Positions 8,475-26,206 are shown, numbered from the stretch's first letter. The stretch: DNA of 32,000 nucleotides from Nostoc sp. PCC 7120 = FACHB-418 (GCF_000009705.1 NC_003276.1:120001-152000); one strand, 5' to 3'. The notes: a model not told the origin generated them from the letters alone. A program made the numbers and translations.

Positions 8475-11400
8475 CTAGAAATTTACTCCTTTTTGATAAT
8501 CAACATCATAGCCGATATCACCAACGAAAGAAAAGCGACGGACAAAATCAAATATTTGTTTAATATCCTCTAATGTTAAGTTATCTGGAATTACTTTGTC
8601 TATATCATGTCGAAGTTTATTTAACTCTTCATAAAGATAGGAATGATGCTTATATTTATTTTCATGTTTTTGTAAAGATTCTCGGAAAAAATTTATAAGA
8701 TTATCATTGATTGGCTGATTACGATATTCTTCGTAACGAGATTCAATATCTTTCAATAGATCGCGCATTAAATCAGGATAACGTCCTGAAAAAGCTAGTA
8801 AAGCAAGAATAGCCTGTTGTTCTTTTGCAGAAGATTTATGTCCTTGGATGCGATTGAGAACTTTAAATAGTTTATAAACATTGGTAAGTCGTTTGAGACT
8901 TCTGGGAGATAAATCTACTTCTTGACAGCACTGCACTAAGATATTAAATTCTTCTGGTGAAAATTCATTAAACTTATTACCACTGATACCACTATCTTGA
9001 ATAGCTACTTGAGATTTAAGATATTGTCTTAAGGCTGAGTCAGCAATTGAAGTAACCCGATAGGGAATTTGAATAATTTTTTCCAAATAGTCAGCAGGAG
9101 AAGGACGACCTTGACTAGAAAGCACACCTTGATAATATTTTGCTAAAGCGCGATTGATATAGCGTTCGTCAATAGCAACTACGGCAATAAACAAGCGATT
9201 TTTGACCAGGAGTTGTACTGCTTCTAAAACTTGGACAACTGTATCAGGAGAACAGCGATCTAGGTCATCAATATATAATATGACTCTTGCTGGCCCGCGT
9301 GGAAAAGCTTTTTTCAAAAAGTCGATTTTAGCAGCGTAATCTTTACTATCTGCTGGTGGTGGTAATAACTTGTAACTCAAAGCAGCTAAGTCTTGTTTGA
9401 CTTGGTGCATAATTCCTAGTCGCTTTTCGTAGCTTCCATTATTGATGCGAGCGCTGATAAACTCACCTAAAGAAGCATAGATATTTTCTGGTAGTTCTTG
9501 TTGTTGTTTTTCTAATTTATTTCTAAGTTCAAGGACTTCGCCTTCTAATTGCCTAATCTTTGCATTTTCTTCAGCTTGTTTTTGTTCATTGGCAATTTTT
9601 GTTTCCACATCATTAATTTTGTCATTCCTGAGTGATGCAAGTTCTTCATTAACTTCGATGAGTCTTTCATCTTGCTGGATGGCTTTTTCTATTCCTTCCT
9701 GGATAGATTCTTCTATTTCTTCCTCACGTTTTTTAACTAACTTTTGTACTCTTTCCTCTAACGCTTGCTCATATGATGTTTTATATTCATTAAGTGCAAG
9801 CTGAGTCTCATCGTACCATTTCTTACCTGTTGTCCATAAGGCTTGTAAAGTTGCGATCGCTGGTAACATAGGTGTAAAAAAGCCCACTACCTGCGCTATA
9901 ACTTTAGAACTTCCAAGATTATTAAAAAATTGAATGCCAGCAGGTAGAAGGATAGCTAATAGTAAACAAACAAAAAATATAATAATTAATAATTTATTTT
10001 TCTTTGCCCATTCCCTAACACTATATAATGTTATGGATTGGTAATTATTACTAATCGCTACTGTGACTACTCCCTTTAGCCAAGAACTAACTTTAGTAAT
10101 ATCATCAGATTTAATATTAATTTTTAAGTTAATCTTTTTATTAACTTCTGCTTGTATTTTTTCATCAAAAATTTTATTGAAGCCTTGATCACCTAAAGTA
10201 CGCTCAAGAACAACTGCGGAATATCCTAAAATCAAATGTATTTTTTTCTCGTTATCAGAAGGTTCAAGTTTCACCTCACTACTTTGTTTTTCTCTGATGT
10301 CTGCAACTATTTCATCTAGCCTAATCTGTAATCTTTGCTCTGCATTTGCTAATCGCTCTTGCAGGTCTTTATCCCGTTCGCTTAAATTAACAAGTAGATT
10401 TTCTTTTCGTACTTGAAGTTCCTTTTCCTTATTTATTAATTCTTCTTTCGTTTCTTTATAAGAGCGAATAGAGTCTCGCTGAGATTTAGTGAATATTTGC
10501 CAGAGATTATCTGGAAAATCTTGTTTCTGTTTAGAGTCTTGAAAATTTTGCAGTTGTTCTACTGTTAATACTCGTTCTAAAAACCAGTTTCTATCTTCTT
10601 CACTAACTTGATATAAAACCTGCCAAATTTTTGCACTATTTTCGGCACAGGGTTCAATTCCTACCTTAATTAACTGTTGTTCTAAACTAATTTGTCTATC
10701 TAATTCAAAAAAGATAGTCTGCATTAAACTAGCCCAAAGGTCAGATTTAGCATATGTCCAAGCATCAAACTTGATCTGGTAAATATGACCTACATAAGGG
10801 TAAAGTTCGTCACTACTAGGATTTTCACTCCAAGCTTCTTGTTCCGTAATTCCTTCACTACGAACTTCTAGTATTCGGTTTTGCATTAAGTGCAGAATGT
10901 AAGATTTACCGCCACCCCAACCGCCAAGAATACCCACAGCCACAGGTGGTTCTAAATCTCGCATTAGCAGCATATTAGCAAGGGCATCAATTTCGTCTTT
11001 AAGATTAAGTAAATCTTCATTTAAGTCAGTATCATTGCGAAAGCTACCTCCAATTAAAGCATCTCTATAAGTTTTTCGCAGGATTCTTAAAGAGCGATAC
11101 CAAAGTTCATTAGGGATTTTACCTTTTGTCTGTTCTCGGTCTATTTCACGGATAATACGGATAGGTAAATGGGGTTTAAGAACAATTAAAATTTGACGTT
11201 GTTGCCATTGAGTAAGTGAATTTTCTAACTCTGACTGATTTTTCTCTGCTAAAAGTTCTTTTTTTGGTTTTATTTTTTCTAAATCTTTTAAAATCTCAGG
11301 TAATATCTCAGGCACTTCTATCGCTAAACGACACAAAAGTTCAAACCCCTGCACATAATTTTTTTGTGGTACAAAATCTTCTGTTTGATTTTTAAAATCT

Positions 11401-14400
11401 TGTGCTTGTCTTTTAGCTTCTGTTCGGACTTGAGGGAATTTACAAGCTAAGGCAATTAAACTTTTAACTCTGTAATACTCTTCTTGAATCTCTTGGGCTA
11501 TACTTTGCGCTTCTAAAAAATTGTCTGGCTGGAGGTAAGGAACTAAACGTTCAAGATATTTGTATTGTAAATATGATATATTCAATTCTCGAATAGCTCT
11601 CAATGCTTTATGCTGTTTTTGTGGAGAATACAGAGCCAAGTCCGTTAAAATTTCTGTTTTTTCAGAAAGAATTGGGCTAACATAGGCTATGTCTACAATG
11701 TTTGAGCTAATACTATCAAATTCTTCATCGCTTAATTCTTGTGTCCAGAAATTTGTTAAAACCTTACATTTGGCACTTTGACTTTTAAAAGAATCAGCTA
11801 AATTTATTATTTTTGTCGAGTCTTCTTTAGACAAATTATGTAATAGAGATAAAGCACTAAGAATTTGAGCTTTATAATCTTCTTCTTTCAGATTATAAAT
11901 AATTTCAAAAATACCGTTTCTGTCATGGTCAGGTAGTAAAGTTACTAACTCAGTTAAGATTTTAGTTTTATCCTGTTCATTCGTAATAATATTTTTAACT
12001 AAGCTGAATATTTTACTTATAATTGAATGAATTTCAGCCGTTTCATATAAATTATTTTTATGTCCTTTCCTTAAATTAATAGTTACATTATTAAGGATAC
12101 AGGCTTTTAAAGTTAAATCTTGAATTTTATTTTCTACTATATCTACAGTTTGTGGGATTTGACTGATGTATAAATGTGGAATTAAATTACAAAGAGCTTG
12201 TGTCCGGTGATATTGTCCAGGAATTGATTTTTCTATTAAACTCAGGGTTTCTCTACGCAGTTCTCTAGGAAGGTAGGGAGCTAGATTACTAAAGGCTTCG
12301 GCTCGATAAGCAGGATGAAAAATATTTTCTGTAATGACACGTAATGCAGTAGGTATAAGCCCTGAAGAGAGACGAGGAGCTAATGCGCTAATAAATTTAG
12401 TTTTATCTGAATCATTTCTGGATTGTTTAATTATTTCTAAGGCAGCAGAAAATTGATAGCTAGAAATACGAGAAGCAACTTCTTCAGGAAAACGAAAGGC
12501 TGATTGATTAAGAGCTTTAATAAGATTTTGTTTCTGCTTAATTTGAAATATTATATCTAAAAATTGTTGTATAACTTGGGCTTCAGAGGGTAAATATGGA
12601 GCAATTGCAGCAATAGTATTAGCTTGTTGTAACTCATTCTCAGTTGCTTTTACTATCTCAAGTATTTTATAAAGTAATGGTAATCCAGATCCAGATTTTG
12701 GTAATTGAGAAAGTATAGATGCAAAATCTTGTGCTTGCTGATACTCACTATCAATATCTTTTGCTTTTTCAAGAGCTTGCTCTAACAATTTAATACACTC
12801 ACGTTCTTTTAAGTGAGTTGCCAGAGTCACTAAATCATCAAATTGGCAAGATTGATACTGAAGATTTTCTGCAATTTCAAAAGCTTTGTCTAACGATTCT
12901 GGTGAGGATTTAGATAAATAGGGGATAACAACAGCTAAAGCCTTAGCTTTGCTGCTATCATTCTCAATCGCTTTTAATCTTTCAATAATTTCTAAAAAAA
13001 AAATTTTTACCTGATCAAATTCAGACAAGTGTGTAGCGACAAAAGCTAAGATTTCAGCACCTTTAAAAGTGTCATTTTTTATTGTCTTTGCTATCTCAAT
13101 AACCTTTTCTTTTTGTTCAGTTTTGCTCAACAGAGGCACAATAATTTTAAGTTCGTTAGCCCGTAACAAATCGCTATAGTTAGCATCTAAAAGCATTTTT
13201 AGGGCTTCTTGTAGCACTTCTGAGCGTTTGGGTTCAGGTAAACAAGGTGCAGCAGAAGCTAAAGAAGAAGCTGTTGCAGAAAAATATTTTTGCAAAAATT
13301 CTGTTTGTTGCGGTTCTCTTAAGTAAGGAATAATAGCAATTCGATGTTTATGATGTGAATGATAGTATGTATTTTGAGCTATTTTAAGATATTGTTCTAA
13401 TAATTCTGGTTCAGATTCAGAAAGTTGATAAGCAATAGCGGCTAAAGCTTCATCTTTTTGCTCATCACTATTAATTTTTTTAGCTATCTCAAGAGCTTTT
13501 TGTAGTAAACTTGGATTAAATTTACGTAATTGAGGAGCAACAGCAACTAGAGCTTGTGCTTTAGCAGAGTCATAGGTAGAAACAAGTTTTTCAATTATTT
13601 CAAGTGATTTGTCTAGTAAATGTGACTCAAAATCTGACAAGTGAGGAATAACTGCCACTAAAGCTCTAGATCGGGCATTATCATATTCAATTGTTTGTAT
13701 TATTTCAAAAGCCTTTTCTAATAATTGTGATTTCGATTGAGGTAAGTGAGGTATAACAGCAAATAAGGCAACAACTTTACTAGCACCTTCTTTTATATTT
13801 ATCGCTATTTTAAGAGCTTGTTGCAATAACTGAGGTTCTAATTTAGATAAGTGAGGAGCTAAAGCTACCAGTGCTATAGCTTGGTCATAAGAACCAAATT
13901 CAAGATTTTGAACTATATTAAAAGCTTTTTGTAACAGCTTTGACTGGGATTTAGATAAGTAAGAAGCAATAAAAACTAAAGTTTCGCTTACGCCACTTAT
14001 GAAATTTGGCCAAATATTTTCAATTCTTTCTAAAATAAGATATAAAACTTCATTGCATTGAGTTTCTTTTAGGTGAGGTGCAATAGCAGCTAAGGCTTTT
14101 ATTCTGTCATATTCTTCATTGGCAATTTTGTATGCTATTTCAAGAGCTTGCTGTAGCAATATTGGTTCAGATTTAGGTAAGTAAGGAGCAATAGCAACTA
14201 GAGCTTCACGTTGATAATCTCCACGTTCCAAATTATTTACTATCTCAAGGGTCTTTTCTAATAATTGAGGCTCAAATTCAGTTAATTGCGGAGCAATGAT
14301 AGAAAAAATATTAACTCCATTCTCTATCTTTTCTGGTAATGCTTCCAAAGCTTGTTGAAAAACTTCTGTACGCTCATCTTTATCTAAAAGAGCAGCAAGA

Positions 14401-15368
14401 TTTATTAATGAAGTGATATTTTCAACACTTATAAAGTCAGTGCTACCTCTAGTTTTTCTTACTAAATCAAGAGCTTTTTTTAAAATCTCTCTACGTCGAG
14501 GCTCATTTACATGAGGAGCAATAGTAGCTAATCCTTTGATTTGGTAAAATTCATTATTAATATTTTGTGCTATGGTCAGAAATTGTTCGATAATCTCTGA
14601 ATCAATTTCCTTTAAATTAGAGGTGATAAAAGCTATAGCTTCAACTCCAGCATAGTAATTAATATTCTGCGTTATTGACAAGAGTTCTTGTAATAATTGT
14701 GGATTGATTTCGGTTATTTGGCTAGTGATAACAGTTAGAGCTTCAGCTTGTAAATAATCAACTTTTATGTTTTGTACAAATTTAAGGGACTGTGTTAGCA
14801 CTTCTGTTTTTAGAGGTTTAGGCACATGAGAAGCAAGAGCGGCTAAAGTTTCTGCTAGTTCTGAAGGTCGTTCGTGATTCTCTATTACTAATAAAGCCTG
14901 TTTTAATATTTCTGTAGACTCTGGTATAGATAATTGAGTAACTATAAAAGCTAAGGCTTTAGCTTGGTAATAATTATTCTCAATATTCTGGGCTATTTTA
15001 TAAACCTCTTGTATCCATTGCGGTTGAGACTTAGGCAAGTGAGGTGCTATCGTAATTAAAGCTTCTGATCGCAGTTTTTCATCTTGAATCCCCTGGACGA
15101 TTTTGCAAGTTTTCTGTAGTATTTTTGGCTCAGATTCGGGTAAATAAGTAACAATAGCAGTTATAACTTTTTTAACTTGGTCAAACTCGTCCAAGCTCTT
15201 TGCAATGTCAAGAGTTTGTTGCAGTACCGTTGACTTTGATGGCAGTAACTCGGCAACAAAGCTGGTCAGTGCTTCTACTTTTTTCTCATCATCAGTAATG
15301 GTCTTAATATCTTTTAACCATTCCAATAAATCTTGACTCAATAAATACTGGCTTTGCTCTAATGTCAT
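8475..15368 (-). CDS. Giant KAP-family P-loop NTPase with about 30 N-terminal HEAT/ARM-like repeats, coiled coils and a TM hairpin inserted in the NTPase domain
   Basis: 2297-aa ORF. The N-terminal roughly 1300 aa (nt about 11400-15280) are 35-40-aa units of the form AL..IAPHLP.S.P.LLQ.AL.IA..I (for example AIAPYLPKSEPILLQQALEIAYKI and ALAPHLSKLEPQLLQQALKIAINI). Walker A is GILGGWGGGKSYIL (nt about 10907-10936). FDAWTYAKSDLW is the KAP-typical motif. The hydrophobic helices are LLIIIFFVCLLLAILLPAGIQFF and IAQVVGFFTPMLPAIATLQALW (nt about 9838-9996). Walker B is VILYIDDLDRC (nt about 9255-9290). E/K/Q-rich coiled coils flank the TM hairpin. Confidence 0.85.
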   Translation of the reverse strand: MTLEQSQYLLSQDLLEWLKDIKTITDDEKKVEALTSFVAELLPSKSTVLQQTLDIAKSLDEFDQVKKVITAIVTYLPESEPKILQKTCKIVQGIQDEKLRSEALITIAPHLPKSQPQWIQEVYKIAQNIENNYYQAKALAFIVTQLSIPESTEILKQALLVIENHERPSELAETLAALASHVPKPLKTEVLTQSLKFVQNIKVDYLQAEALTVITSQITEINPQLLQELLSITQNINYYAGVEAIAFITSNLKEIDSEIIEQFLTIAQNINNEFYQIKGLATIAPHVNEPRRREILKKALDLVRKTRGSTDFISVENITSLINLAALLDKDERTEVFQQALEALPEKIENGVNIFSIIAPQLTEFEPQLLEKTLEIVNNLERGDYQREALVAIAPYLPKSEPILLQQALEIAYKIANEEYDRIKALAAIAPHLKETQCNEVLYLILERIENIWPNFISGVSETLVFIASYLSKSQSKLLQKAFNIVQNLEFGSYDQAIALVALAPHLSKLEPQLLQQALKIAINIKEGASKVVALFAVIPHLPQSKSQLLEKAFEIIQTIEYDNARSRALVAVIPHLSDFESHLLDKSLEIIEKLVSTYDSAKAQALVAVAPQLRKFNPSLLQKALEIAKKINSDEQKDEALAAIAYQLSESEPELLEQYLKIAQNTYYHSHHKHRIAIIPYLREPQQTEFLQKYFSATASSLASAAPCLPEPKRSEVLQEALKMLLDANYSDLLRANELKIIVPLLSKTEQKEKVIEIAKTIKNDTFKGAEILAFVATHLSEFDQVKIFFLEIIERLKAIENDSSKAKALAVVIPYLSKSSPESLDKAFEIAENLQYQSCQFDDLVTLATHLKERECIKLLEQALEKAKDIDSEYQQAQDFASILSQLPKSGSGLPLLYKILEIVKATENELQQANTIAAIAPYLPSEAQVIQQFLDIIFQIKQKQNLIKALNQSAFRFPEEVASRISSYQFSAALEIIKQSRNDSDKTKFISALAPRLSSGLIPTALRVITENIFHPAYRAEAFSNLAPYLPRELRRETLSLIEKSIPGQYHRTQALCNLIPHLYISQIPQTVDIVENKIQDLTLKACILNNVTINLRKGHKNNLYETAEIHSIISKIFSLVKNIITNEQDKTKILTELVTLLPDHDRNGIFEIIYNLKEEDYKAQILSALSLLHNLSKEDSTKIINLADSFKSQSAKCKVLTNFWTQELSDEEFDSISSNIVDIAYVSPILSEKTEILTDLALYSPQKQHKALRAIRELNISYLQYKYLERLVPYLQPDNFLEAQSIAQEIQEEYYRVKSLIALACKFPQVRTEAKRQAQDFKNQTEDFVPQKNYVQGFELLCRLAIEVPEILPEILKDLEKIKPKKELLAEKNQSELENSLTQWQQRQILIVLKPHLPIRIIREIDREQTKGKIPNELWYRSLRILRKTYRDALIGGSFRNDTDLNEDLLNLKDEIDALANMLLMRDLEPPVAVGILGGWGGGKSYILHLMQNRILEVRSEGITEQEAWSENPSSDELYPYVGHIYQIKFDAWTYAKSDLWASLMQTIFFELDRQISLEQQLIKVGIEPCAENSAKIWQVLYQVSEEDRNWFLERVLTVEQLQNFQDSKQKQDFPDNLWQIFTKSQRDSIRSYKETKEELINKEKELQVRKENLLVNLSERDKDLQERLANAEQRLQIRLDEIVADIREKQSSEVKLEPSDNEKKIHLILGYSAVVLERTLGDQGFNKIFDEKIQAEVNKKINLKINIKSDDITKVSSWLKGVVTVAISNNYQSITLYSVREWAKKNKLLIIIFFVCLLLAILLPAGIQFFNNLGSSKVIAQVVGFFTPMLPAIATLQALWTTGKKWYDETQLALNEYKTSYEQALEERVQKLVKKREEEIEESIQEGIEKAIQQDERLIEVNEELASLRNDKINDVETKIANEQKQAEENAKIRQLEGEVLELRNKLEKQQQELPENIYASLGEFISARINNGSYEKRLGIMHQVKQDLAALSYKLLPPPADSKDYAAKIDFLKKAFPRGPARVILYIDDLDRCSPDTVVQVLEAVQLLVKNRLFIAVVAIDERYINRALAKYYQGVLSSQGRPSPADYLEKIIQIPYRVTSIADSALRQYLKSQVAIQDSGISGNKFNEFSPEEFNILVQCCQEVDLSPRSLKRLTNVYKLFKVLNRIQGHKSSAKEQQAILALLAFSGRYPDLMRDLLKDIESRYEEYRNQPINDNLINFFRESLQKHENKYKHHSYLYEELNKLRHDIDKVIPDNLTLEDIKQIFDFVRRFSFVGDIGYDVDYQKGVNF

Positions 15369-15611: not shown

Positions 15612-16025
15612 TTACTCCCCCACCGGATACCGCCGCATCATCTCCGCCAACGCCACAGCCTCCCCATCCGCCGTGTACACCACCTCACCCGACATCGCAA
15701 TCACAATCCGCTTCTGCCTCGCCCACTCAAACCAAGCGATCGCCCCCGACTTAGCCTGCTGCACCTCCGGTTTCCGTCCCTCCCGACAAGCAGCCACAAA
15801 CACAGCCTCCGGTGACTTAACCCCCTTCCAAGTCCGCACTGCCTCCTTCAAATATGCGATCGCCCCCGGCACATTCTCCCAGTACCGCTTGACCGTGCGC
15901 TGAATCTCCCCGTTTAACCGAAACTGAGGGGTACAAGGAATCTCCCTCAACTGCTGCAATATTTCCTGAACCTCCTGCTGACTTGGCTGTACTGATTTAT
16001 CTACAGGCTCAGGCAGCGATCGCAC
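15612..16025 (-). CDS. C-terminal-domain-only paralog (stand-alone gene or remnant) of the 19638..20753 product
   Basis: 137-aa ORF. From KSVQPSQQEVQEILQQLREIPCTP... to ...AEMMRRYPV it aligns without gaps to the C-terminus of the 371-aa protein, with 8-9 amino-acid differences. Its own N-terminus (MRSLPEPVD) is unrelated. Confidence 0.5.
   Translation of the reverse strand: MRSLPEPVDKSVQPSQQEVQEILQQLREIPCTPQFRLNGEIQRTVKRYWENVPGAIAYLKEAVRTWKGVKSPEAVFVAACREGRKPEVQQAKSGAIAWFEWARQKRIVIAMSGEVVYTADGEAVALAEMMRRYPVGE
15621..15995. repeat. Direct repeat copy A (375 bp), partner at 19680..20054
   Basis: Hand alignment gives the same length, no indels and about 43 mismatches (roughly 88-89 percent identity). 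Both copies are in the same orientation. Confidence 0.9.
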
Positions 16026-16219
16026 TTTTGGTGGGGCATCATCGCATCTGGTCTTGATTACTATCCGCTAGATCAGGACTTCTGCGTAAGAGCAATAACT
16101 TTACTGGCTTACTTATAAGCTTGTTGAGCTTGTGTAGACAGGAAGCCTTGAAGTCTGTTGCCAACTTAAGTATAAATTGCTATTCTCCAGTAAGATTTTA
16201 CTCCTACTGAAAAGCCTGT

Positions 16220-17137
16220 ATGCCCATCCCTGACTATCAAGCGATAATGCTACCGTTACTCAAATTTACCACCGACCAGAAGGAACACTCACTACAGGAA
16301 ACAATTGATGCTTTGGCAGATCACTTCCAATTAACTGAAGATGAACGAAAAGAACTCTTGCCTAGTGGCCGTCAACCAACTTTTAATAATCGTGTAGGGT
16401 GGGCGCGTACTTATTTAAAAAAAGCAGGATTAGTGGAGTCAACTAAACGAGGCTATTTCCGTATAACTGATAGAGGAATCGATACAATTAAAACTAATCC
16501 TGTTGAGATTAATGCTAAAATTTTAAGACAATTTCCAGAATTTCTAGAATTTCAAAACTATACTCAACAATCAGAGGAAAGCACATCTAATGGTAGTGGG
16601 ACTGAAATCAATACAACTCGCACACCAGAAGAAGATGTAGAGCTTGCCATTCAAAAGCTGACAAAAGAATTAGCATCAGATTTACTACAGATAATTAAAA
16701 ATTCTTCTCCTGCTTTCTTTGAAAAACTGGTAGTCGATTTATTAGTCAAAATGGGCTATGGTGGTACTCGCAAGGATGCAGGCAAAACAGTAGGGCGTAG
16801 TGGCGATGGTGGAATTGACGGTATCATCAATGAAGACCGTCTTGGCTTAGATGTGATTTATATTCAAGCTAAACGCTGGGAAAATTCTGTAGGTCGTCCT
16901 GAAATTCAAAAGTTTGCTGGTGCTTTGCAAGGGTTTCGAGCTAAAAAGGGTGTGTTTATAACAACATCAACATTTACAAATGAAGCTAAAGACTATGTTT
17001 CAAGAATTGACAGCAAGATTGTTCTGATTGATGGTGAAATGCTTACTCAGTTAATGATTGAAAATAATGTTGGTGTTACGCCATTTACTGTATATGAAGT
17101 CAAGAAAGTTGATTCAGATTATTTTACGGATAGTTAA
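16220..17137 (+). CDS. mrr: Mrr-family type IV (modification-dependent) restriction endonuclease
   Basis: 305 aa. The N-terminal Mrr_N-like winged helix reads MPIPDYQAIMLPLLKF...RVGWARTYLKKAGLVEST.RGYFRITDRG. The C-terminal catalytic core reads GRSGDGGIDGIINEDRLGLDVIYIQAKRW (D...D-x-QxK PD-(D/E)xK variant), followed by FAGAL......KGVFITTSTFT. Confidence 0.9.
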   Translation: MPIPDYQAIMLPLLKFTTDQKEHSLQETIDALADHFQLTEDERKELLPSGRQPTFNNRVGWARTYLKKAGLVESTKRGYFRITDRGIDTIKTNPVEINAKILRQFPEFLEFQNYTQQSEESTSNGSGTEINTTRTPEEDVELAIQKLTKELASDLLQIIKNSSPAFFEKLVVDLLVKMGYGGTRKDAGKTVGRSGDGGIDGIINEDRLGLDVIYIQAKRWENSVGRPEIQKFAGALQGFRAKKGVFITTSTFTNEAKDYVSRIDSKIVLIDGEMLTQLMIENNVGVTPFTVYEVKKVDSDYFTDS

Positions 17138-17173
17138 AGTAGTTTTTGAAGCAAATGGATGATTTAGCTTTTC

Positions 17174-19294
17174 TTATTCTTGCATCATTTTGTATTTTGT
17201 TATAAATTTATTTAATGATATCTTCAAATTTTCTGCTAATCTGCTTTGTTCAGTTAAATCTTGAACTCTAGCAATTACCTCATCTGCGCTTAAGTCAGAC
17301 AATAACCATTGAGGAAAAATCATATCATTTTGTGCAATAGTAAGAAAGTTTTCTAACAAACAAATTAGTTTTTGGTCTTCCTTAAGAATTTCTTTTATCC
17401 ATTGATTTACTTCTTCTACATTAGCTAAATCACGCCAAAAAGCTAGGATATGAAGCAATTTAGGTGCTTTAAGTAAACTTTCTTGTTGTGCAGCATTTCG
17501 TACTTTATCCAAAGCAAGCTTCTCGATTTCTTCTAATTGTTGTGTATTTACAACTCTTTGAGCTTCAGGCTTGTCTCTTCTATATTCATATTTTCCATGC
17601 TGCGACCCCAGAGATACAACTTGGTGTACTATTGTTGCAATTGCATGACCGTTAAATATGACTTTTTTTAATATTTGTCCTCTTTCTGATTTTTCAATTC
17701 TTTGCAAAAGTTGATTTATTAATAATTCTATTTCATATTCATTACCTATGGAAACAAAAGAATTGTTCTCATATTCAATGTCCCACAGTTGATCTCCAAC
17801 TTCAAAAAAAGCCTGTAAAATAGGTTCTACATCATTTAAAGGAATATCTTTATCTACATAATCTCTTAAACGGTCTAGAAAAACATTAATTCTACTTATA
17901 CCATCAGGACGCATCTGGGCAGATAATTCTACCAGTTTAGCTCCAAATGCCTGACAATTATTTGCTAAAGCTAATATAGCTTGCATTTCAGAAATAGATA
18001 TATTACCTTCAGGAATCGCTAAACGAAAGTAAACAGGGAAAACATCTGCACTGCATATATGAAGATATCTTCGTTTATTTTGAAAATAATTATCTCCTAA
18101 AGTTATATTTATATTACCTGATTTTGGAAAAATTTTTGTTAATATAAATTTGACTGCATTTCTATCTCTTTCATTAATTTGATTAATCCAAGTGTTATGA
18201 AATTCCTTTATTTTTTCTTCGTCTATAATCCTTGGTACAGTTAAAAATCTAACCCCAAAAGTGAATAATTCTGGATTATTACGAATAATATTATATACAG
18301 TTGGGTAAAACAGCCTAATAGTTTCAATAGCAACGAAATCAACGAAATTAACTTCTCCTTTAACTCCTGGATATGTCACCATCAAGGTATTCGCTAAACG
18401 TAATATACTACGAGGTGTAGTAATAAAATGCTCTATTCCTTGCCAATAAATTTCTAACCAATATTTTTGGTCAAATAGTTCTTCTGGAGTACCAGAAATT
18501 ATTTTGTCTAGTTGGCTATCAAATAATCTGGAAAGCTGTATTCTATCAGGAAGGGGCAGTTCAAAAGAAACCTGAACAATTTTCTCAAGATAAACTTCTC
18601 CATTTATTTTCTGTATTTCTTCAAGAGCTTTGATAACAACTTCTTTATCAAAAAGTAAAAGATAAACAACATTAGGAAAATTAGCAACTGCTTTAATTAC
18701 CCGAAACAGTTGTCTAATCTCTTCAGCAGTCAATCTATCTATATCATCAATAACAACTAAAATACGTTTTTGCTGCTTTTTTAGTGTTTCTTCTATTTCC
18801 TGTTTTAATTTATGTATATCCTTTGGACTAATGACTGTTTTTACTGTTGCAGCAAAACCTTTTGTCCATAAACCTGGAACTGTAGAAACTCTCTCTGCAA
18901 AACTTTCTATCTGGTTTTTAAATTTTCTCCCAAGGGATTGCCATTTCTCGTATAATACGCCTGATAATTGCTCAAAAAAGCTTTTAGTAAGGTCTTCCTG
19001 CCCAGAAAACCACCAAGGATTATACGGCACAATTATTGGTTGTTCCTGCTCAGGCTTTTGCTTGAGGTAGTGTATTATAAAATTTAATAAAGTTGACTTA
19101 CCTAAACCCCAAGGGGCATAAACTGCTATCACTAATCCATCTGGCGGAGACATTTTGCAGATGCTTTCTGCAAGATTCTTGGCGAATGGAGCATAACCTA
19201 ATTTGTCATCTTTTGGGTCACTTAGAGGTTTATCTGCCGATAAAATATTTAGAGTATCAGGCTCCAAACTGAAGCTATCTTGCCCTTCAAACAT
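17174..19294 (-). CDS. KAP-family P-loop NTPase, soluble form with no TM insert and an uncharacterised helical C-terminal region of about 400 aa
   Basis: 706 aa. KAP-type N-terminus DKPLSDPKDDKLGYAPFAKNLAESI, Walker A VIAVYAPWGLGKSTLLNFI, then YNPWWFSGQEDL, Walker B ILVVIDDIDRL. I see no long hydrophobic segment between the Walker motifs. Convergent with mrr, with a 36-bp gap. Confidence 0.85.
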   Translation of the reverse strand: MFEGQDSFSLEPDTLNILSADKPLSDPKDDKLGYAPFAKNLAESICKMSPPDGLVIAVYAPWGLGKSTLLNFIIHYLKQKPEQEQPIIVPYNPWWFSGQEDLTKSFFEQLSGVLYEKWQSLGRKFKNQIESFAERVSTVPGLWTKGFAATVKTVISPKDIHKLKQEIEETLKKQQKRILVVIDDIDRLTAEEIRQLFRVIKAVANFPNVVYLLLFDKEVVIKALEEIQKINGEVYLEKIVQVSFELPLPDRIQLSRLFDSQLDKIISGTPEELFDQKYWLEIYWQGIEHFITTPRSILRLANTLMVTYPGVKGEVNFVDFVAIETIRLFYPTVYNIIRNNPELFTFGVRFLTVPRIIDEEKIKEFHNTWINQINERDRNAVKFILTKIFPKSGNINITLGDNYFQNKRRYLHICSADVFPVYFRLAIPEGNISISEMQAILALANNCQAFGAKLVELSAQMRPDGISRINVFLDRLRDYVDKDIPLNDVEPILQAFFEVGDQLWDIEYENNSFVSIGNEYEIELLINQLLQRIEKSERGQILKKVIFNGHAIATIVHQVVSLGSQHGKYEYRRDKPEAQRVVNTQQLEEIEKLALDKVRNAAQQESLLKAPKLLHILAFWRDLANVEEVNQWIKEILKEDQKLICLLENFLTIAQNDMIFPQWLLSDLSADEVIARVQDLTEQSRLAENLKISLNKFITKYKMMQE

Positions 19295-19513
19295 ACAGTT
19301 ATGCTCACATGAAAATTTTCACTGGTTACAGTCTTAAATTTTTATCATGCTATACAGTAATGTTGAAACAAAATTAAGTTTTGCTAAATAATCGTGCAGA
19401 TGCAAATTGAAACGCTGAGACATCAAAGCTGATATAGAAAATAGTAACGGATCTTTACAGCATTAAAGTAGGAGCATCTGCTAAAGTACACTCTTTATTT
19501 TTGATAGCGATCG

Positions 19514-19672
19514 CTACTCCTCCCACTTTAGCACCACACCATCGACTGCCACCAACCCCCACTGCGGACACTTCACCACCAGTTTCTTGATCACAATCCG
19601 CAAAGCTGGATCATCAGCCCAATACTCGCTCAAAAACTCATCCCCAGGATTTTCGCGCAACTGTTCTGCCAT
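19514..19672 (-). CDS. Small hypothetical ORF (52 aa) overlapping the end of the 371-aa gene
   Basis: Hand translation: MAEQLRENPGDEFLSEYWADDPALRIVIKKLVVKCPQWGLVAVDGVVLKWEE. It is below the ORF-track length cutoff. Its start lies inside the tail of 19638..20753 in another frame. Its composition matches the GC-rich backbone, and it ends at a HIP1 site right at the compositional boundary. Confidence 0.3.
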   Translation of the reverse strand: MAEQLRENPGDEFLSEYWADDPALRIVIKKLVVKCPQWGLVAVDGVVLKWEE

Positions 19673-20753
19673 CTTCAATCACCGGATACCGCCGCATCAT
19701 CTCCGCCAAAGCCACTGCCTCACCATCCGCCGTATACACAACTTCCCCCGACATCGCAATCACAATCCTCTGCTGCCTTGCCCAGTCGAACCAAGCGATC
19801 GCATCAGACTTAGCCTGTTGTGCTTCTGGTTTCCTCCTTTCCCTGCAAGCAGCCACAAACACAGCCTCCGGTGACTTAATCCCCTTCCAAGTCCGCACTG
19901 CCTCCTTCAAGTAAGCGATCGCCCCCGGCACATTCGCCCAATACCGCTTAACTGTACGCTGAATCTCCCCATTAAGCCGAAACTTTGGCGTACAAGGAAT
20001 CTCCCTCAACTGCTGCAATATTTCCTGCACTTCCTGTTGACTTGGCTGTACTGACTTTTCTTGTAGATCAGTGTAATCATCACCAGAGTCTTCGTTATGA
20101 AAGCTTGACACGGCGGCGGAAGAATGGCCATCATGATGGTCTGTCTTGCTAGTCGAGTCATCTTGTTCTGGTTCATCAACGAAGTGAGTAACTTGGGATA
20201 ACTCTAACTCTGGGGTTTGACAAATCACTTCCTGCTTGCATTCCAAAATCTCCGGTTTCACTTCCTCACTTTTTTCAAACTCAACAGCACTGTGTTGTTG
20301 TGAAGTGAAGTCTTTGAGAGGGAAGTCTTTGTTATGATCTGCTGTGTGTGAACAGATCGATATGTCCAAATTGCTCACATCGATCTGCTGATTTTGACAA
20401 ATGCGATTCCACAAGGCTTGTACGTTCTCGACGTTAACCGTGAACCAGTTCGCCTGATACCATGTCTTTTCACTATGACGGCAGACATCAATCAACTTAA
20501 AATTGTCCCTCAAGTTAGCGATCGCTCGTCTGATGGCAGAAGGCTTGAGAAACGGTAGAGTTTCGCCCCAATCTTTGAGCGTCTTCCAAAACCAGCGTCT
20601 ACCATCACGTTTGATGTGTTTGGAGATTTGACAGAAGTAATGAATCTGCTGGAGTATCATTGCTTCGGTTAAACCAATCTCTACGGCTAATAGTGGCGGA
20701 ACCAAGAGAGGGGATTCTGGAGTGATTAATTTACTAGTCATATTTTTACTCAA
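19638..20753 (-). CDS. Mobile-element protein: N-terminal winged-helix replication-organiser/DnaD-like domain plus a conserved C-terminal domain of unknown function
   Basis: 371 aa. The N-terminus (LLAVEIGLTEAMILQQIHYFCQ....DGRRWFWKTLKDWGETLPFLKPSAIRRAIANLRD..LI) fits the pattern of phage/plasmid replisome-organiser wHTH domains. This is recognition by pattern only. An acidic linker follows. The C-terminal 125 aa are duplicated at 15612..16025. Confidence 0.6.
   Translation of the reverse strand: MSKNMTSKLITPESPLLVPPLLAVEIGLTEAMILQQIHYFCQISKHIKRDGRRWFWKTLKDWGETLPFLKPSAIRRAIANLRDNFKLIDVCRHSEKTWYQANWFTVNVENVQALWNRICQNQQIDVSNLDISICSHTADHNKDFPLKDFTSQQHSAVEFEKSEEVKPEILECKQEVICQTPELELSQVTHFVDEPEQDDSTSKTDHHDGHSSAAVSSFHNEDSGDDYTDLQEKSVQPSQQEVQEILQQLREIPCTPKFRLNGEIQRTVKRYWANVPGAIAYLKEAVRTWKGIKSPEAVFVAACRERRKPEAQQAKSDAIAWFDWARQQRIVIAMSGEVVYTADGEAVALAEMMRRYPVIEDGRTVARKSWG
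19680..20054. repeat. Direct repeat copy B (375 bp), partner at 15621..15995
   Basis: See copy A. The copies are 4059 bp apart and bracket the mrr + KAP cassette. Confidence 0.9.
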
Positions 20754-20772
20754 TGTCTAAATTACTCAAGTT

Positions 20773-21573
20773 CTAAAACGGCATATTTTCTTGGTCTTCC
20801 TCTGGAGCTTGTGACCAAAATTCTCGAAGTGCTTGGAGTTTCGCGGCTTGCAACCGTTGTTTTTCTTCGGGCGATACTTCACCGACTAACTGCGCTACTT
20901 CAGAGCGTTGATTCTGCTTCATCTGCTCGGTACTGATGGCGGGGAGTGCCACTGGTTCCGCTTGACCTTGCTGGGAGGGGCGGAAACGACGGCGACGGTA
21001 CAAAAAACGAAAGTGGCGTTGATCTTGTGGAGGTAGCGATCGCCATACTTCGGCATCCCAGCCGGGGGGAATGAAGTCAGATGATGGTGGCAGCAGGGTT
21101 TGAACTTGCGCTTGCAGTTGTGCGATCGCCTGACCTTGTGCTTCAATTACCTTGTTCTGCTGTTCAATTGTTTCTAACAGTTGTGACAATAACTCTTGGG
21201 ACTGTGGGGCTAACTCTGCCTCACGGGTTTTCACTGCAAAGTAATTCTGCGCTGCTGCTATCTCTGGTTTACGTGAATCCCCATTCATGGCTGTGAGGTA
21301 GCAACCATGACGAGAAAGCTTGAAATCATCTCCCGGCCTGCCTCCAGTACTTTTTGCCGGCATTGGCAAAAAGTGGTTCTCGCTCTCTTGACCGATGTTT
21401 TTACAAGCGGCGATCGCTCTATTTATGGCATCTTCAAGTCTTCGCCATTGCTGATAACCCAAAATAGGCATTAAATCACGGGCTAACCAATACTCAGTAC
21501 CGTCATCATCAATTTTTCTGATTTGGTCAAATGGGCTATCAGTATTAGATTGGGCTGATGTGATTGCATTCAT
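20773..21573 (-). CDS. BRO-N / DinD-like (DNA-damage-inducible protein D family) phage-associated DNA-binding protein
   Basis: 266 aa. FDQIRKIDDDGTEYWLARDLMPILGYQQWRRLEDAINRAIAACKN....HF ... FKLSRHGCYLTAMNGDSRKPEIAAAQNYFAVKTREAE closely follows the E. coli DinD / BRO-N pattern (..W.AR.L...LGY..........A...C........HF ... LSR.ACYL...NGD..KP.IAA.Q.YFA..TR). Confidence 0.75.
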   Translation of the reverse strand: MNAITSAQSNTDSPFDQIRKIDDDGTEYWLARDLMPILGYQQWRRLEDAINRAIAACKNIGQESENHFLPMPAKSTGGRPGDDFKLSRHGCYLTAMNGDSRKPEIAAAQNYFAVKTREAELAPQSQELLSQLLETIEQQNKVIEAQGQAIAQLQAQVQTLLPPSSDFIPPGWDAEVWRSLPPQDQRHFRFLYRRRRFRPSQQGQAEPVALPAISTEQMKQNQRSEVAQLVGEVSPEEKQRLQAAKLQALREFWSQAPEEDQENMPF

Positions 21574-21678
21574 ATTGACTCCAAATTTTGACGCATGGAA
21601 CTCTCACCCAACGCTCAGGCTGGGTTTTTGTTTTGTGGGCGTTCGGCAATCGATGTCTAAAAAATCACAATCTACGGC

Positions 21679-23313
21679 TTACAACAGGCGCAACTCATCT
21701 TTGAAATAGCGGTCATTCTTTTTCGGTTTGTCTTGCCAATGCTCCCAAGCCACCCAAACCTCATCACCCAAATCCTCAATAACTTCACCCCTGGCGTTAT
21801 ACAAAGCACAGTAAATGTCGGCATGGGCAACGATAGAACCAAGGCCAATCACTTCAGAAGAACCAGACTCGGCAGGGGTTTCTTCAAGAACCATTGGTTC
21901 CGCAATGAGTGAGGATTCGGTTTTCTCCAAAGCGGTGATTAGCTCTGTCTCTTCTGTGGTTAACTCTGCCCAGTAGTCGTTTTTGATAACCTCGTATTCT
22001 TGGGCGACTGCAAGATACTCCATCCATGTACACCCAGGTTTAGATAACACCGCCCGAATATCGCTCACTGCTTGGGGAATGAGTTGCAACTGTTCGGCAC
22101 GATATGCGATCGCAGATGGTGTCGGCTCACTTCCCAAAATCAAGGCCGCAGCTTGCAGAGCTTGGGTGTTGTTCATGGCGCTGGCAAGATTCCCCAAAGC
22201 TATACCCATGAGCCGTAAGCACTCCTGAGCGTTTTCCTTGGGTGGTTCTTGTGCCAGCAATCGCAAGTCAATAGTTTTATCTAGAGCTTGTTTAACCCCT
22301 TTGTTCAGTGCTTTAGTCGCCTGTTTGGTAAGAGTATTGCCCCATTCTTGAGCAGGACGTTGTTGTACAGCATTTTCTAGTTCCTGAATACGCTGCTTGA
22401 GTTGTTGGTTATCGTATTCCAACTGCCTCAAGGCTTCCATCTCGTCCAAGCGTTGCTGTAGCCGGATGTTTTCTTCCTTTTGTTGCTGAAACAGGTTTTG
22501 TAATGCGGTCAGTTGTTCTTGAACTTGTTCCTCGGCTTTGGTGTTGGCTTCAGACTGTATACCAATCCTCAGTTCTTGTTCCAGCCGTTCGAGTTCCTGT
22601 TGGTGCTGCTGTTTGAGTGCGCCAATCGCTTCAGCGTATTCTGGGGGAAGTGTTCTCTCTCTGGGGAAAGGAACACTCTTGGCATCCAAATCGGCGTTAT
22701 TGAGCAGTTCCTTAGTACCATCAGCAAAAGTTACAATCTGCTGCCAGTGGTTCGGGGGGTCTGCTTCGATTGTTCCTGATTCTCCATGTCTGTGGTGAGT
22801 TGGTGACGTAACCTTGACTGTGGCAAATTCAGGAACCATTGGTTCTTGAATTTTAGGAACCACTGGTTCCTGAGTTTTTTGACGTGGGAGCCGGGGAACC
22901 ACTTTTTGAGCCGCAGCAGCAAAGTCTGATTCGCTGGGTGAGGGATTCTCTTGAAGTGCGATCGTCACAGCCTGTTTTAGTTTCTCTGGTTCCTTGGCTA
23001 AACGAAGCAAGGGACGGGCTTGACGCTCATTCTTAATGTGCTGTCCCAGTTCGCCTACTGTGTCGATAACTCTCTTTGCACCCAACAGTTGGGTGATTCG
23101 TCGGTAGCCACCCCAGGCGGATAGTTCACGCTGGCAGTATTCTTTAAAATCAGCGTAGCCAGCTTCAAGGTAAAGTTCTTGATCACGCATCTGGAGAATC
23201 TCGCCTACAGCCTGCCACTCAAAACGGTCAATGGCAGTAAACGTTTCTTTGATGCCGGAGTTGAGAATACTATAGCTGGGTGCTGATGTTGTTTCACGGT
23301 CTAGTGTCAGCAT
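21679..23313 (-). CDS. Hypothetical protein with a Q/E-rich central coiled coil; the N-terminus may be a ParB/KfrA-like DNA-binding domain
   Basis: 544-aa ORF in the same operon orientation as the XRE, BRO and replication-like genes. The coiled coil reads QQHQQELERLEQELR...LQNLFQQQKEENIRLQQRLDEMEALRQLEYDNQQLKQRIQELENAVQQ. I found no catalytic motif. Confidence 0.65.
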   Translation of the reverse strand: MLTLDRETTSAPSYSILNSGIKETFTAIDRFEWQAVGEILQMRDQELYLEAGYADFKEYCQRELSAWGGYRRITQLLGAKRVIDTVGELGQHIKNERQARPLLRLAKEPEKLKQAVTIALQENPSPSESDFAAAAQKVVPRLPRQKTQEPVVPKIQEPMVPEFATVKVTSPTHHRHGESGTIEADPPNHWQQIVTFADGTKELLNNADLDAKSVPFPRERTLPPEYAEAIGALKQQHQQELERLEQELRIGIQSEANTKAEEQVQEQLTALQNLFQQQKEENIRLQQRLDEMEALRQLEYDNQQLKQRIQELENAVQQRPAQEWGNTLTKQATKALNKGVKQALDKTIDLRLLAQEPPKENAQECLRLMGIALGNLASAMNNTQALQAAALILGSEPTPSAIAYRAEQLQLIPQAVSDIRAVLSKPGCTWMEYLAVAQEYEVIKNDYWAELTTEETELITALEKTESSLIAEPMVLEETPAESGSSEVIGLGSIVAHADIYCALYNARGEVIEDLGDEVWVAWEHWQDKPKKNDRYFKDELRLL

Positions 23314-23486
23314 AATGATTGCTCACTATTTGGTAAATGCACAAAAACAGTCGCGCACGCATAACCAAAGTGAACATTGATGCTGATCTTGGGGTTACAC
23401 CAAAAATGTGTCAGCATTATAGTTAGCTCACTTTGTTGTCTAACGATTTGAGTAGGCGATCGCGTTGCTTGCCGGCGGCGATCGCT

Positions 23487-23819
23487 TTATGCTGCTATAT
23501 CCTCTGCTTGGGATTTCTCAACTTTAGATTTTAAGTATTCTTTGACAGGAATAGGTTTAGGTTTGTTTGGTTTGTCTCCTGTAATTGTGCTGTTTGTATC
23601 GTCATCGGGAATAAAGACAATTAAATCTCCTGGTTGGCATTCAAGCGCAATGCAAAGGCCATTAAGCCTTTCCGCCGTTAATCGAGGCATTTCATCCGTT
23701 CGTCTTAATCTGTGAACGGAATTTTCGTCAATTCCTAAAGCTGCTGCTAAATCTTTATTCCTGATCCTTTTCTTTGCCATTATTTCGTTTAACCTCCAAG
23801 CAATCATTCGCTTGCCCAT
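23487..23819 (-). CDS. XRE-family helix-turn-helix transcriptional regulator (candidate element repressor)
   Basis: 110 aa. LNEIMAKKRIRNKDLAAALGIDENSVHRLRR......LTAERLNGLCIALECQPGDLI is a typical Cro/C1-type HTH. GGAGG lies about 7 nt upstream of the ATG at 23819. It is divergent from the rightward operon. Confidence 0.85.
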   Translation of the reverse strand: MGKRMIAWRLNEIMAKKRIRNKDLAAALGIDENSVHRLRRTDEMPRLTAERLNGLCIALECQPGDLIVFIPDDDTNSTITGDKPNKPKPIPVKEYLKSKVEKSQAEDIAA

Positions 23820-23928
23820 ATAACACCTCCATTAGTTTAATCTCCACGTTGCATAGATAAATCGGCTTTTGAAATCTAATTACTACACAATACCACATAT
23901 AAATAAAACTACGATTAGCTTTAAATAA

Positions 23929-23945
23929 ACTACTCCAGAAGTAGT
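23929..23945. promoter_or_regulatory. Candidate operator 1 (6-5-6 palindrome ACTACT ccaga AGTAGT)
   Basis: Perfect inverted repeat with the same CTAC-N7-GTAG geometry as the site at 23974-23990. It lies in the divergent XRE / rightward-operon control region. Confidence 0.4.
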
Positions 23946-23963
23946 AAAAACTATTTTAAATGC

Positions 23964-23992
23964 TTGACTTTACCCTACGGCTGACGTAGGAT
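23964..23992 (+). promoter_or_regulatory. Sigma70-type promoter (TTGACT-17 nt-TAGGAT) with embedded candidate operator 2 (CCTACG gctga CGTAGG, 23974-23990)
   Basis: TTGACT at 23964-23969, an exact 17-nt spacer, then TAGGAT at 23987-23992. The palindrome fills the spacer and overlaps the -10 element. Confidence 0.5.
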
Positions 23993-24240
23993 AATAATTA
24001 CGACAGAGGATAACAGTGCAATGCCTCTGCGATAAACAAAAACCGCACTCATGACAGAACCTTGAAAACTAAGTGCCATTAAGGCATCAGACCAACCAGA
24101 AGCAATCCATAATAAACTTCTGCATCAATGTGTCCGTGTCTTGATAAGACTCAATTCTTACTTACTGGCTTTGACTTTATGGCTACGCCAAATTTGTGTG
24201 AGTGCGTTGTGGCTTCCCCACAACATTAGTACCTAAAAAC

Positions 24241-24283
24241 AAAGGCGATCGCTCGGTCTGGACAACTTCTGCGATCGCCTTTT
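24241..24283 (+). terminator. HIP1-based hairpin (12-bp perfect stem, 18-nt loop, T run), terminator- or attenuator-like, just upstream of the first rightward gene
   Basis: aaaggcgatcgc (24241-24252) pairs with gcgatcgccttt (24271-24282), followed by t. An A-tract lies upstream. Confidence 0.4.
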
Positions 24284-24306
24284 ACCCTTTAGTAAGGATC
24301 TTAATT

Positions 24307-25203
24307 ATGACCTACATTGCACATAGACAGCAACCTGTTAGCGAACAAACCCTAGCCCAAGCTGAACTCGACCTGCACATCGTAGACCAAGCCCAAGCCG
24401 TAGCACCAGAAGACCTAACCACAGTCGAGATTAACCGCCACCACTACGAAATTTACGCAGGCAAACGACTCATCGCATATATTACATACGACAACACCGA
24501 CTTCGTAACCCAACGCTGGGTGGTCATGGTTAACGGTGAAGAAAAGTTTCGTCATAATACCCAAGCATGGTGCTTCCGCTTCATCGACTGGCATCACAAG
24601 GACGGGACGCTCAACCCAACAGTCTCAGGCGAAATTCCAGAAGTCCCCACAATTTCCAAAATCTGTTTCTACGATCACGAAGCCCTCGTTGATGGTGAAT
24701 TAGTAGCCAGTATCAGCTTTGACTCAGAGAATCACGAAGACTTATACTGGCGAGTCCTGGTCAACAACATCGAGATTTTCCGCGACACAACACCCGCCAG
24801 ATGCCACAGTTATGTGAAACAGCAATACCAGCAAGGCACTTTACCAGTACAACAGCCATTTGTAGAACCCTGTACCACTGGCAATGAAATCATGGTGCAA
24901 ATTGCCGATGAATGCGAGAAGCACGGGCTGGAACTGTTGGACGATGGGATTTATCGCAGTGATGTGAGATTGGGAGAAGTCGGTTGCACAGATAACCAAT
25001 GGTGGGTTATCCGCACCGGAGAATCCCAGGAAAAAATACCCTGTGACTCCGCGATGGATGCTGTGTATTGGCTGTCAATGGTGGATGCTATTGAAGCTAT
25101 GGACTGCGAACAATTGCTAGACCTGCCGTTTGATATGTTAACGGCTCACGACTGGCAGAGGCTTTTGGAGTATCAGCCACATTCTGATTTAGTCGCGGCT
25201 TAA
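24307..25203 (+). CDS. Hypothetical protein with an internally duplicated module of about 58 aa
   Basis: I prefer the start at 24307 (MTYIAHRQQ), which has AAGGA 8 nt upstream, over the track start at 24202, which would run through the hairpin. Repeats: HHYEIYAGKRLIAYITYDNTDFVTQRWVVMVNGEEKFRHNTQAWCFRFIDWHHKDGTL versus DHEALVDGELVASISFDSENHEDLYWRVLVNNIEIFRDTTPARCHSYVKQQYQQGTL. Confidence 0.7.
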   Translation: MTYIAHRQQPVSEQTLAQAELDLHIVDQAQAVAPEDLTTVEINRHHYEIYAGKRLIAYITYDNTDFVTQRWVVMVNGEEKFRHNTQAWCFRFIDWHHKDGTLNPTVSGEIPEVPTISKICFYDHEALVDGELVASISFDSENHEDLYWRVLVNNIEIFRDTTPARCHSYVKQQYQQGTLPVQQPFVEPCTTGNEIMVQIADECEKHGLELLDDGIYRSDVRLGEVGCTDNQWWVIRTGESQEKIPCDSAMDAVYWLSMVDAIEAMDCEQLLDLPFDMLTAHDWQRLLEYQPHSDLVAA

Positions 25204-25215
25204 TTCTTACGTATG

Positions 25216-25245: not shown

Positions 25246-25280
25246 TTCCCTTCATACCTTTATCATCACTAATCACAAAT

Positions 25281-26198: not shown

Positions 26199-26206
26199 AA
26201 GAAACT

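Follow-up and report, generated by a model that had tools for sequence, protein, structure and literature searches.

mrr and a PifA-like KAP NTPase gene are neighbours in variable cargo of a Nostoc sp. PCC 7120 megaplasmid, probably as two independent defences

A 32,000-nucleotide stretch of DNA from Nostoc sp. PCC 7120 = FACHB-418 (NC_003276.1:120001-152000; hereafter the window, with positions counted from its first letter) carries two convergent genes, mrr and a gene for a KAP family NTPase of 706 amino acids (aa), that belong to already-described kinds and add a further Mrr and a further PifA-family KAP NTPase to those on record. Comparison with related plasmids and chromosomes indicates that the two genes are neighbours and not a conserved two-gene system. 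The block that they form probably belongs to the variable defence cargo of a megaplasmid of the Nostoc/Anabaena PCC 7120 type, contributing two known single-gene defences that we infer to act independently in vivo. An initial annotation of this DNA had proposed instead a horizontally acquired two-gene defence module, bracketed by direct repeats, in which the NTPase senses or gates for Mrr or backs up restriction by abortive infection. An open reading frame (ORF) listing with a threshold of 60 aa confirmed both genes, their convergent orientation and the 36-bp gap that separates them (Table 1), and the foreign character of the block was likewise upheld; the functional pairing was not.

The two proteins

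By sequence, the 706-aa protein is a full-length homolog of PifA of the F plasmid. Its match to the Pfam profile KAP_NTPase (PF07693; 1.3e-85) covers profile positions 1-291 of 293, and it carries a Walker A motif, GLGKST, at residues 63-68 and a Walker B motif, VIDDIDR, at residues 181-187, of which G65, K66, D183, and D184 are invariant in 60 homologs. The PADLOC PifA model matches residues 18-691 along profile positions 5-709 of 720 (7e-121, 403 bits); on the same model, F PifA scores 963 bits and archaeal and TA06 family members score 414-438 bits. A BLASTP comparison with F PifA, for which the reference was taken from an IncF plasmid that carries the gene directly after pifC under the annotation 'phage T7 exclusion protein', returned a single collinear high-scoring segment pair that aligns residues 21-647 with 14-680 at 24% identity (E 3e-36). 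No transmembrane (TM) segment was found in the protein, the top 19-residue Kyte-Doolittle window reaching 1.44 against a threshold of 1.6, and the AlphaFold2 (AF2) model (pLDDT 82, pTM 0.76) contains no TM hairpin; in this model, the NTPase domain leads into a C-terminal half (~310-706) that is entirely alpha-helical. A sequence search of the PDB with the protein gave no match, and a Foldseek search of the PDB with the AF2 model gave RdrA of RADAR as the best hit, with a TM-score of only ~0.32, and otherwise generic AAA+, STAND, and ORC folds. Neither the model nor the Foldseek search pointed to an effector domain in the C-terminal half. Thus, the protein has the intact Walker motifs, the full-length collinearity, and the lack of TM helices of a PifA family member, and what it lacks is the upstream pifC repressor gene: tblastn with F PifC over the window gave nothing better than E=7.6.

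PifA has been described as a KAP family member that lacks TM helices, and its exclusion of phage T7 is ascribed to depolarisation of the membrane and leakage of nucleotides (PMC13001434). A 2026 study reports stand-alone defence by KAP proteins whose C-terminal regions are uncharacterised, in a manner that depends on the Walker B motif (PMC13552941). According to references cited in PMC13552941 and PMC13001434, F PifA needs no restriction partner and responds to gp1.2 and gp10 of T7. Judged by its homology to F PifA, the Nostoc protein would most likely be an NTP-dependent sensor of phage proteins that, once triggered, would abort infection through membrane leakage or depolarisation. The earlier guess of an abortive-infection role fits this picture because the protein is a PifA homolog; a dedicated link to Mrr does not. 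The same annotation had named both Tmn and QatA as KAP-type NTPases with anti-phage roles. For QatA, a PADLOC match to the window protein agrees with its being KAP-like, whereas Tmn is classed as a YobI-family protein and not as KAP (2026 preprint, PMC13001434).

A large group of Nostoc KAP paralogs (the Nostoc group of L051-L083 in the survey described below) is ~45% identical, with matches to the window protein confined to query residues 7-594, and diverges in the C-terminal 110 aa. These genes lie in a conserved and apparently chromosomal context, beside genes for a major facilitator superfamily (MFS) transporter, an FAD amine-oxidase-like protein, a DUF72 protein, and a YflT-like protein, a setting that is not defence-island-like.

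The product of mrr has the sequence characters of a type IV modification-dependent restriction endonuclease. A single polypeptide of ~300 aa combines Mrr_N, the winged helix (1.6e-35), with Mrr_cat, the PD-(D/E)xK domain (3.4e-38, profile positions 2-115 of 115), and the PADLOC mREase_IV model matches it over its full length (5.7e-98). Motifs of the catalytic region are recognisable as GIDG at residues 198-201 and IQAKR at residues 215-219. Type IV enzymes of this kind are solitary, and the Nostoc gene conforms: a scan of eight ORFs between 8475 and 23819 turned up no methyltransferase domain, and orthologs elsewhere stand alone among housekeeping genes. The N-terminal winged helix would recognise modified DNA and the PD-(D/E)xK domain would cut it. 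The Pfam and PADLOC searches that had been proposed as checks thus bear out the family assignments of both proteins and mark both genes as defence-type by homology.

Distribution of the pair

A dedicated module would be expected to recur in unrelated genomes, and adjacency of mrr and KAP genes across such genomes had been suggested as the decisive comparison. The survey from the KAP side took one genome per species and retained 80 loci, numbered with the prefix L, whose KAP homologs are 37-84% identical to the window protein, each with 8-kb flanks; Mrr was sought among their 3,545 ORFs by tblastn, by phmmer, and with a profile built from 120 Mrr homologs. The PifA-like family gave >1,100 hits at E of 1e-10 or lower among the candidates scored. 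Tblastn with the window Mrr matched only in Nostoc parmelioides (L004), and phmmer and the profile added one weak match (E ~1e-4) that lies 6.4 kb from the KAP gene (L079). Of the 79 loci other than L004, 78 (37-62% identical) have no adjacent Mrr by any of the three methods, and the remaining one, from Nostoc indistinguendum (L010; KAP protein 76% identical), is cut off by the end of its contig within the KAP gene.

The pair was found in four closely related Nostocaceae replicons that share one backbone: the window itself, Trichormus variabilis plasmid A (L001), N. parmelioides (L004), and Nostoc FACHB-87 (L089). Plasmid A of T. variabilis ATCC 29413 is the best match in the plasmid collection, at 95.5% identity, and proteins identical to those of the window are encoded on a plasmid of Anabaena sp. 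FACHB-709. The N. parmelioides locus is 85% identical in nucleotide sequence over window positions 15613-23303 and therefore has the same backbone and both repeats. Nostoc FACHB-87, with a KAP protein 81% and an Mrr 94% identical, repeats the arrangement of the window with a 7-bp gap.

From the Mrr side, the KAP gene is missing beside mrr in 7 of 11 ortholog lineages (at least 84% identical to the window Mrr; the seven, 84-96%), and what takes its place differs from one lineage to the next. On the Nostoc carneum chromosome (Mrr 96%), a DDE transposase gene adjoins mrr (L084:7100-8587). On a plasmid of T. variabilis NIES-23 with the same backbone (L086; Mrr 96%), the segment equivalent to window 17139-19682 is replaced by 0.84 kb holding an unknown 252-aa ORF (L086:6972-7730). 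In Aulosira FACHB-615 (Mrr 93%), where mrr lies between two copies of the repeat, the neighbour is an HNH-like gene encoding 308 aa (L087:4725-5651), and in LEGE 11386 (Mrr 93%) it is a convergent Schlafen/AlbA_2-like gene encoding 465 aa (L090:1764-3161). Nostoc UIC 10890 (L088; Mrr 88%) lacks window 17214-19514 altogether, with window position 17213 fused directly to 19515 and ~40 nt of the KAP 3' end left behind. Finally, on the chromosomes of UHCC 0399 and UHCC 0870 (Mrr 84% in both), mrr stands by itself, with housekeeping genes around it. Relatives thus freely exchange the content of the slot convergent to mrr, often for occupants that are themselves defence-like.

With respect to the proposed module, then, each gene is found without the other, the pair is confined to one narrow Nostocaceae lineage and backbone, and the 78 KAP loci and seven Mrr lineages answer the neighbourhood question in the negative. 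Neither co-occurrence across unrelated genomes nor a shared transcription unit was found; the genes are convergent and therefore not co-transcribed. A shared terminator within the gap was also considered and rejected, as no terminator-like hairpin was detected in those 36 bp. The mrr gene is a unit of its own, with its own upstream region, and faces opposite to the KAP gene and the backbone row described next.

Flanking repeats and plasmid backbone

The initial annotation had bracketed the block with same-orientation repeats of 375 bp. A repeat is indeed present, with copies at ~15621-16012 and ~19680-20070 that are roughly 390 bp long, ~88% identical, and 4059 bp apart from start to start; what did not hold is its role as a cassette boundary. 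The right copy is the part of a Rep-like gene, with a product of 371 aa, that codes for the C-terminal domain; residues 7-132 of this product match PHROG 6493, a DnaD-like helicase loader (2.4e-21), and the left copy is a truncated paralog of the same gene. The segment occurs 2-3 times in related Nostocaceae plasmids with and without the mrr-KAP cassette; Nostoc NIES-3756, for example, has two repeat-bearing paralogs in tandem, followed by a Fur-family gene. Because they are coding, ~88% identical, and present in cassette-free plasmids, the repeats are segments of paralogous genes, not scars left by an insertion, and attachment sites or target duplications were rejected on the same grounds. 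No integrase or transposase was found among the ORFs and domains scanned between 15612 and 20753, and the block is not bounded by insertion-generated repeats of the kind that would delimit a mobile cassette. Since different cargo follows each copy in different plasmids, the Rep-like C-terminal-domain repeats are probably sites at which homologous recombination joins one cargo segment to another.

To the right of the cassette runs a row of backbone genes on the minus strand, which encode an XRE helix-turn-helix protein, a 544-aa protein, a BRO/KilA-N protein, the Rep-like protein, and a 52-aa ORF that is kept in both Nostoc UIC 10890 and N. indistinguendum. The KAP gene is the last gene on this strand, at the 3' end of the row. 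The backbone module (19638-28105) is common to several Nostocaceae megaplasmids, with counterparts at L001, L002, L004, and L086; its BRO/KilA-N gene is Ant-like, and small unknown genes, a DUF1392 gene among them, form a divergent row on the other strand. As a whole, it looks like a phage- or plasmid-type module for replication and regulation.

Base composition and HIP1 sites

The block is AT-rich relative to its flanks, as had been judged by eye: G+C content (GC) is 0.338 in 16024-19506 versus 0.445 in the backbone at 19515-28200, and GC at third codon positions (GC3) is 0.25 in mrr and 0.20 in the KAP gene versus 0.42-0.52 in backbone genes. These low values mark the block as foreign. The AT-rich, HIP1-poor zone does not stop at the block, however, as had been supposed. 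The adjacent gene for a 2297-aa protein has a GC of 0.33, a GC3 of 0.20, and one HIP1 site, so that the low-GC island extends over ~11 kb and is broken only by the GC-rich left repeat.

The lack of HIP1 sites, which had been offered as a further mark of the block, is real and carries little weight. The window holds 23 HIP1 sites versus 0.06 expected by chance, and none lies between 16023 and 19507. The density in the flanks predicts 3.5 sites for the block (P(0)=0.03); when the over-representation in the backbone is scaled to the block's own base composition, the expectation falls to 1.6 (P(0)=0.19), and HIP1-free status was accordingly rejected as an independent sign of foreign origin. The edges of the block had also been placed at HIP1 sites, each just inside one copy of the repeat. 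On the right, the site at 19507-19514 is in fact both the compositional and the comparative boundary of the KAP cargo, and it abuts the stop codon of the 52-aa ORF; neither edge site is inside a repeat, however, the right one lying ~170 nt outside its copy and the left one, at 16016-16023, lying 4 nt past the inner end of its own.

Within the backbone, HIP1 sites also occur in pairs 22-26 nt apart that form perfect inverted repeats in intergenic positions (23456-23485, 24245-24278, and 25216-25245), as in AAAGGCGATCGC-N14-GCGATCGCCTTT at 24242-24281. These pairs look like HIP1-based hairpins.

Weighing the explanations

Several observations weigh against two independent defences. Despite ~15% nucleotide divergence, the two genes have stayed together where the pair exists, with only 7-41 bp between them, which is compatible with selection on the pair; the identity of the KAP protein to F PifA is only 24%; and PifA-like KAP genes lie inside restriction-type operons at 16 of the 80 loci, which hints that the family may cooperate with restriction systems.

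This last observation deserves a fuller account. The KAP homologs at these 16 loci are 37-47% identical to the window protein. Eight of them are in DISARM class 1 operons (L041, from Acidovorax facilis DSM 649, L044, L045, L046, L049, L058, L069, and L081; KAP gene at ~8001-10100 in each) with the order DrmD-DrmMI-KAP-(GHKL ATPase)-DrmA, in which a GHKL/HATPase_c_3 protein often follows KAP; in L044, the stop of DrmMI and the start of KAP overlap by 4 nt. Another seven are inside or beside type I restriction-modification (R-M) genes (L032, L035-L038, L056, and L060) in at least four gene orders, including HsdS-KAP-HsdM, HsdR-KAP-HsdM-HsdS, and HsdS-HsdR-KAP; in three Acidobacteriota type I loci, the KAP gene is divergent from hsdM. 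In the remaining locus (L068), KAP follows an Hma-like pair of an SNF2 helicase and a DUF1156 methylase. When the KAP proteins were grouped into clades by average-linkage clustering on identity, restriction-type partners appeared in 5 of 16 clusters, and one clade, with members >55% identical, occurred in both DISARM and HsdR-KAP contexts. No description of KAP NTPases embedded in DISARM or R-M loci was found in the searchable literature, outside of which some key papers lie.

The PrrC anticodon nuclease, which is embedded in the EcoprrI type Ic R-M operon, offers a precedent for an abortive-infection NTPase inside a restriction operon. It is enticing to speculate along these lines that soluble PifA-like KAP proteins are widespread accessory guards of restriction-type systems, either kept inactive by the restriction machinery or set off by anti-restriction functions of phages, such that an abortive response would follow when restriction is bypassed or inhibited, and that the Nostoc mrr-KAP pair is one evolutionarily labile instance. 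The DISARM, type I, and Hma-like loci, the single clade that spans two restriction contexts, and the spread over five clusters all speak for such guards. Yet the type of partner is not conserved, and for most cyanobacterial homologs the neighbours are MFS, oxidase, or DUF72 genes and include no restriction genes. Among defence genes, those for R-M are the most common, so that co-location in islands is expected, and the figure of 16 in 80 is a raw count. The action of F PifA in response to T7 proteins, with no restriction partner, and the ready loss of the KAP gene while mrr stays also argue against a guard function. On balance this explanation is unlikely, although the pattern, which recalls PrrC, leaves a slim chance to the earlier idea of a backup to restriction in a weaker and more general form.

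A much more doubtful alternative is that the KAP protein mainly serves the plasmid, in exclusion, maintenance, or signalling, with phage exclusion being incidental. A view relayed in PMC13552941 holds that phage restriction may not be the primary function of PifA, the KAP gene ends a replication-like backbone row, and many Nostoc paralogs reside in conserved non-defence chromosomal contexts. These points are outweighed by the variable presence of the KAP gene among otherwise syntenic plasmids, its foreign composition, the defence-like genes (Schlafen-like and HNH-like) that fill the same slot in relatives, and the embedding of homologs in DISARM and R-M operons, and the proposal is accordingly highly improbable.

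Least probable, and largely refuted, is a dedicated system in which the NTPase gates or senses for Mrr or is its specific abortive-infection backup: the defence-type nature of both proteins and the tight adjacency in four replicons despite their divergence are what speak for it, versus convergent genes, 78 more distant KAP homologs that have no adjacent Mrr, seven close Mrr orthologs that have no KAP, one of them in the same backbone with another gene in the slot, and two protein families each known to act alone.

Neighbouring genes

Two independent defences remain the preferred account of the mrr-KAP block, and the block in turn is part of a larger defence-cargo hotspot at ~4.8-19.5 kb of the window, made up of a NACHT-WD40 protein, a giant HEAT-repeat KAP protein, Mrr, and the PifA-like protein (Table 1). 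Left of the cassette, in order, are the truncated Rep paralog, the giant KAP gene, and the NACHT-WD40-type gene. The 2297-aa KAP protein has at least 9 HEAT-like repeats of ~35 aa (a 105-nt period at 13357-15064), with Walker A at residue 1485, Walker B at residue 2033, and two TM-like segments between them (1787-1841), as judged from its sequence the classical membrane-inserted KAP layout. This gene is not at the corresponding position in T. variabilis plasmid A, where other genes are found. The best PADLOC match of the 1189-aa protein is the HEAT-ARM_XIII model (4e-36, residues 565-718); the protein appears STAND/NACHT-like and is another candidate immune-type gene to the left of the AT-rich cargo. 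At the right end of the window, the second of two TnpB-like ORFs has a counterpart in T. variabilis plasmid A, where it is annotated as TnpB and adjoins tnpA.

Table 1. Features of the mrr-KAP block and its surroundings, in window coordinates (strand not applicable,.)
Feature	Position	Strand	Evidence or remark
1189-aa protein with central P-loop GMGGIGKT and long C-terminal WD40 array	4768-8337	+	translation
2297-aa protein with HEAT-like 35-aa repeats and C-terminal KAP NTPase, QatA-like	8475-15368	-	Pfam, PADLOC
Truncated paralog of the 371-aa gene, 137 aa, C-terminal domain only	15612-16025	-	left repeat copy, GC 0.58
mrr	16220-17137	+	305 aa; ORF listing, Pfam, PADLOC
Gap separating the convergent stop codons of mrr and the KAP gene	17138-17173	.	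36 bp
PifA-like KAP NTPase gene	17174-19294	-	706 aa; ORF listing, Pfam, PADLOC, BLASTP
Stretch 5' of the KAP gene	19295-19513	.	right end = HIP1 site 19507-19514
Backbone ORF, 52 aa (MAEQLRENPGDEF...KWEE)	19514-19672	-	directly downstream of Rep-like gene; translation; too short for the 60-aa threshold of the ORF listing
371-aa backbone protein with DnaD-like/replication-initiator N-terminal domain	19638-20753	-	PHROG 6493
TnpB-like ORF (IS200/IS605-family, Cas12f-like zinc-ribbon)	28526-30187	+	translation
95-aa ORF overlapping the first TnpB-like ORF in another frame	28750-29037	+	
TnpB-like ORF (IS200/IS605-family, Cas12f-like zinc-ribbon)	30406-31677	-	translation

Implications

The finding matters mainly for annotation: the plasmid gene now labelled 'KAP family NTPase' should, on homology, be read as a PifA-family defence candidate. 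It also carries a caution, in that genes which are tightly adjacent, compositionally distinct, and flanked by repeats can mimic a 'system' where comparison shows freely exchangeable neighbours. The sole lead worth following, which could come to matter more than the locus itself, is the embedding of PifA-like genes in DISARM and type I R-M loci. PifA is among the oldest known abortive-infection proteins, and the operonic embedding of its relatives may bear on its mechanism and natural partners and lets one ask whether PifA-like proteins monitor restriction systems.

Comparison with known systems

The closest counterpart of the KAP protein is PifA of the F plasmid, which is responsible for Pif phage-T7 exclusion and is named 'PifA' in PADLOC and 'Pif' in DefenseFinder. 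Both are soluble KAP P-loop NTPases of ~700-740 aa that have the two Walker motifs, A and B, and lack TM helices, both are collinear through the C-terminal helical region, and both are plasmid-borne. They differ in sequence, at 24% identity, in the lack of a PifC repressor or a pifC-pifA operon in the Nostoc case, and in the cyanobacterial host. The EF_KAP protein (PMC13552941) likewise joins a KAP domain to an uncharacterised C-terminal region and provides stand-alone, Walker-B-dependent defence, but it has TM helices, which the window protein does not. Resemblance to other KAP-type NTPases is more limited: QatA of the Qat system shares the KAP-type P-loop, with a PADLOC match (5.5e-12) that covers only parts of the NTPase domain, and RdrA of RADAR shares the P-loop and is the best fold match in the PDB at the low TM-score given above.

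The Mrr protein of the window has the full-length Mrr_N and Mrr_cat architecture of Mrr from Escherichia coli K-12, and its gene differs in lying in a plasmid cargo hotspot, where it adjoins a slot with variable partners. The arrangement of PrrC within EcoprrI finds its parallel not in the window but in the distant PifA-like homologs that are embedded in type I R-M and DISARM loci; PrrC itself is an ABC-type ATPase with a nuclease domain, of another family than KAP, and the window KAP gene is convergent to a type IV enzyme and not embedded in its operon.

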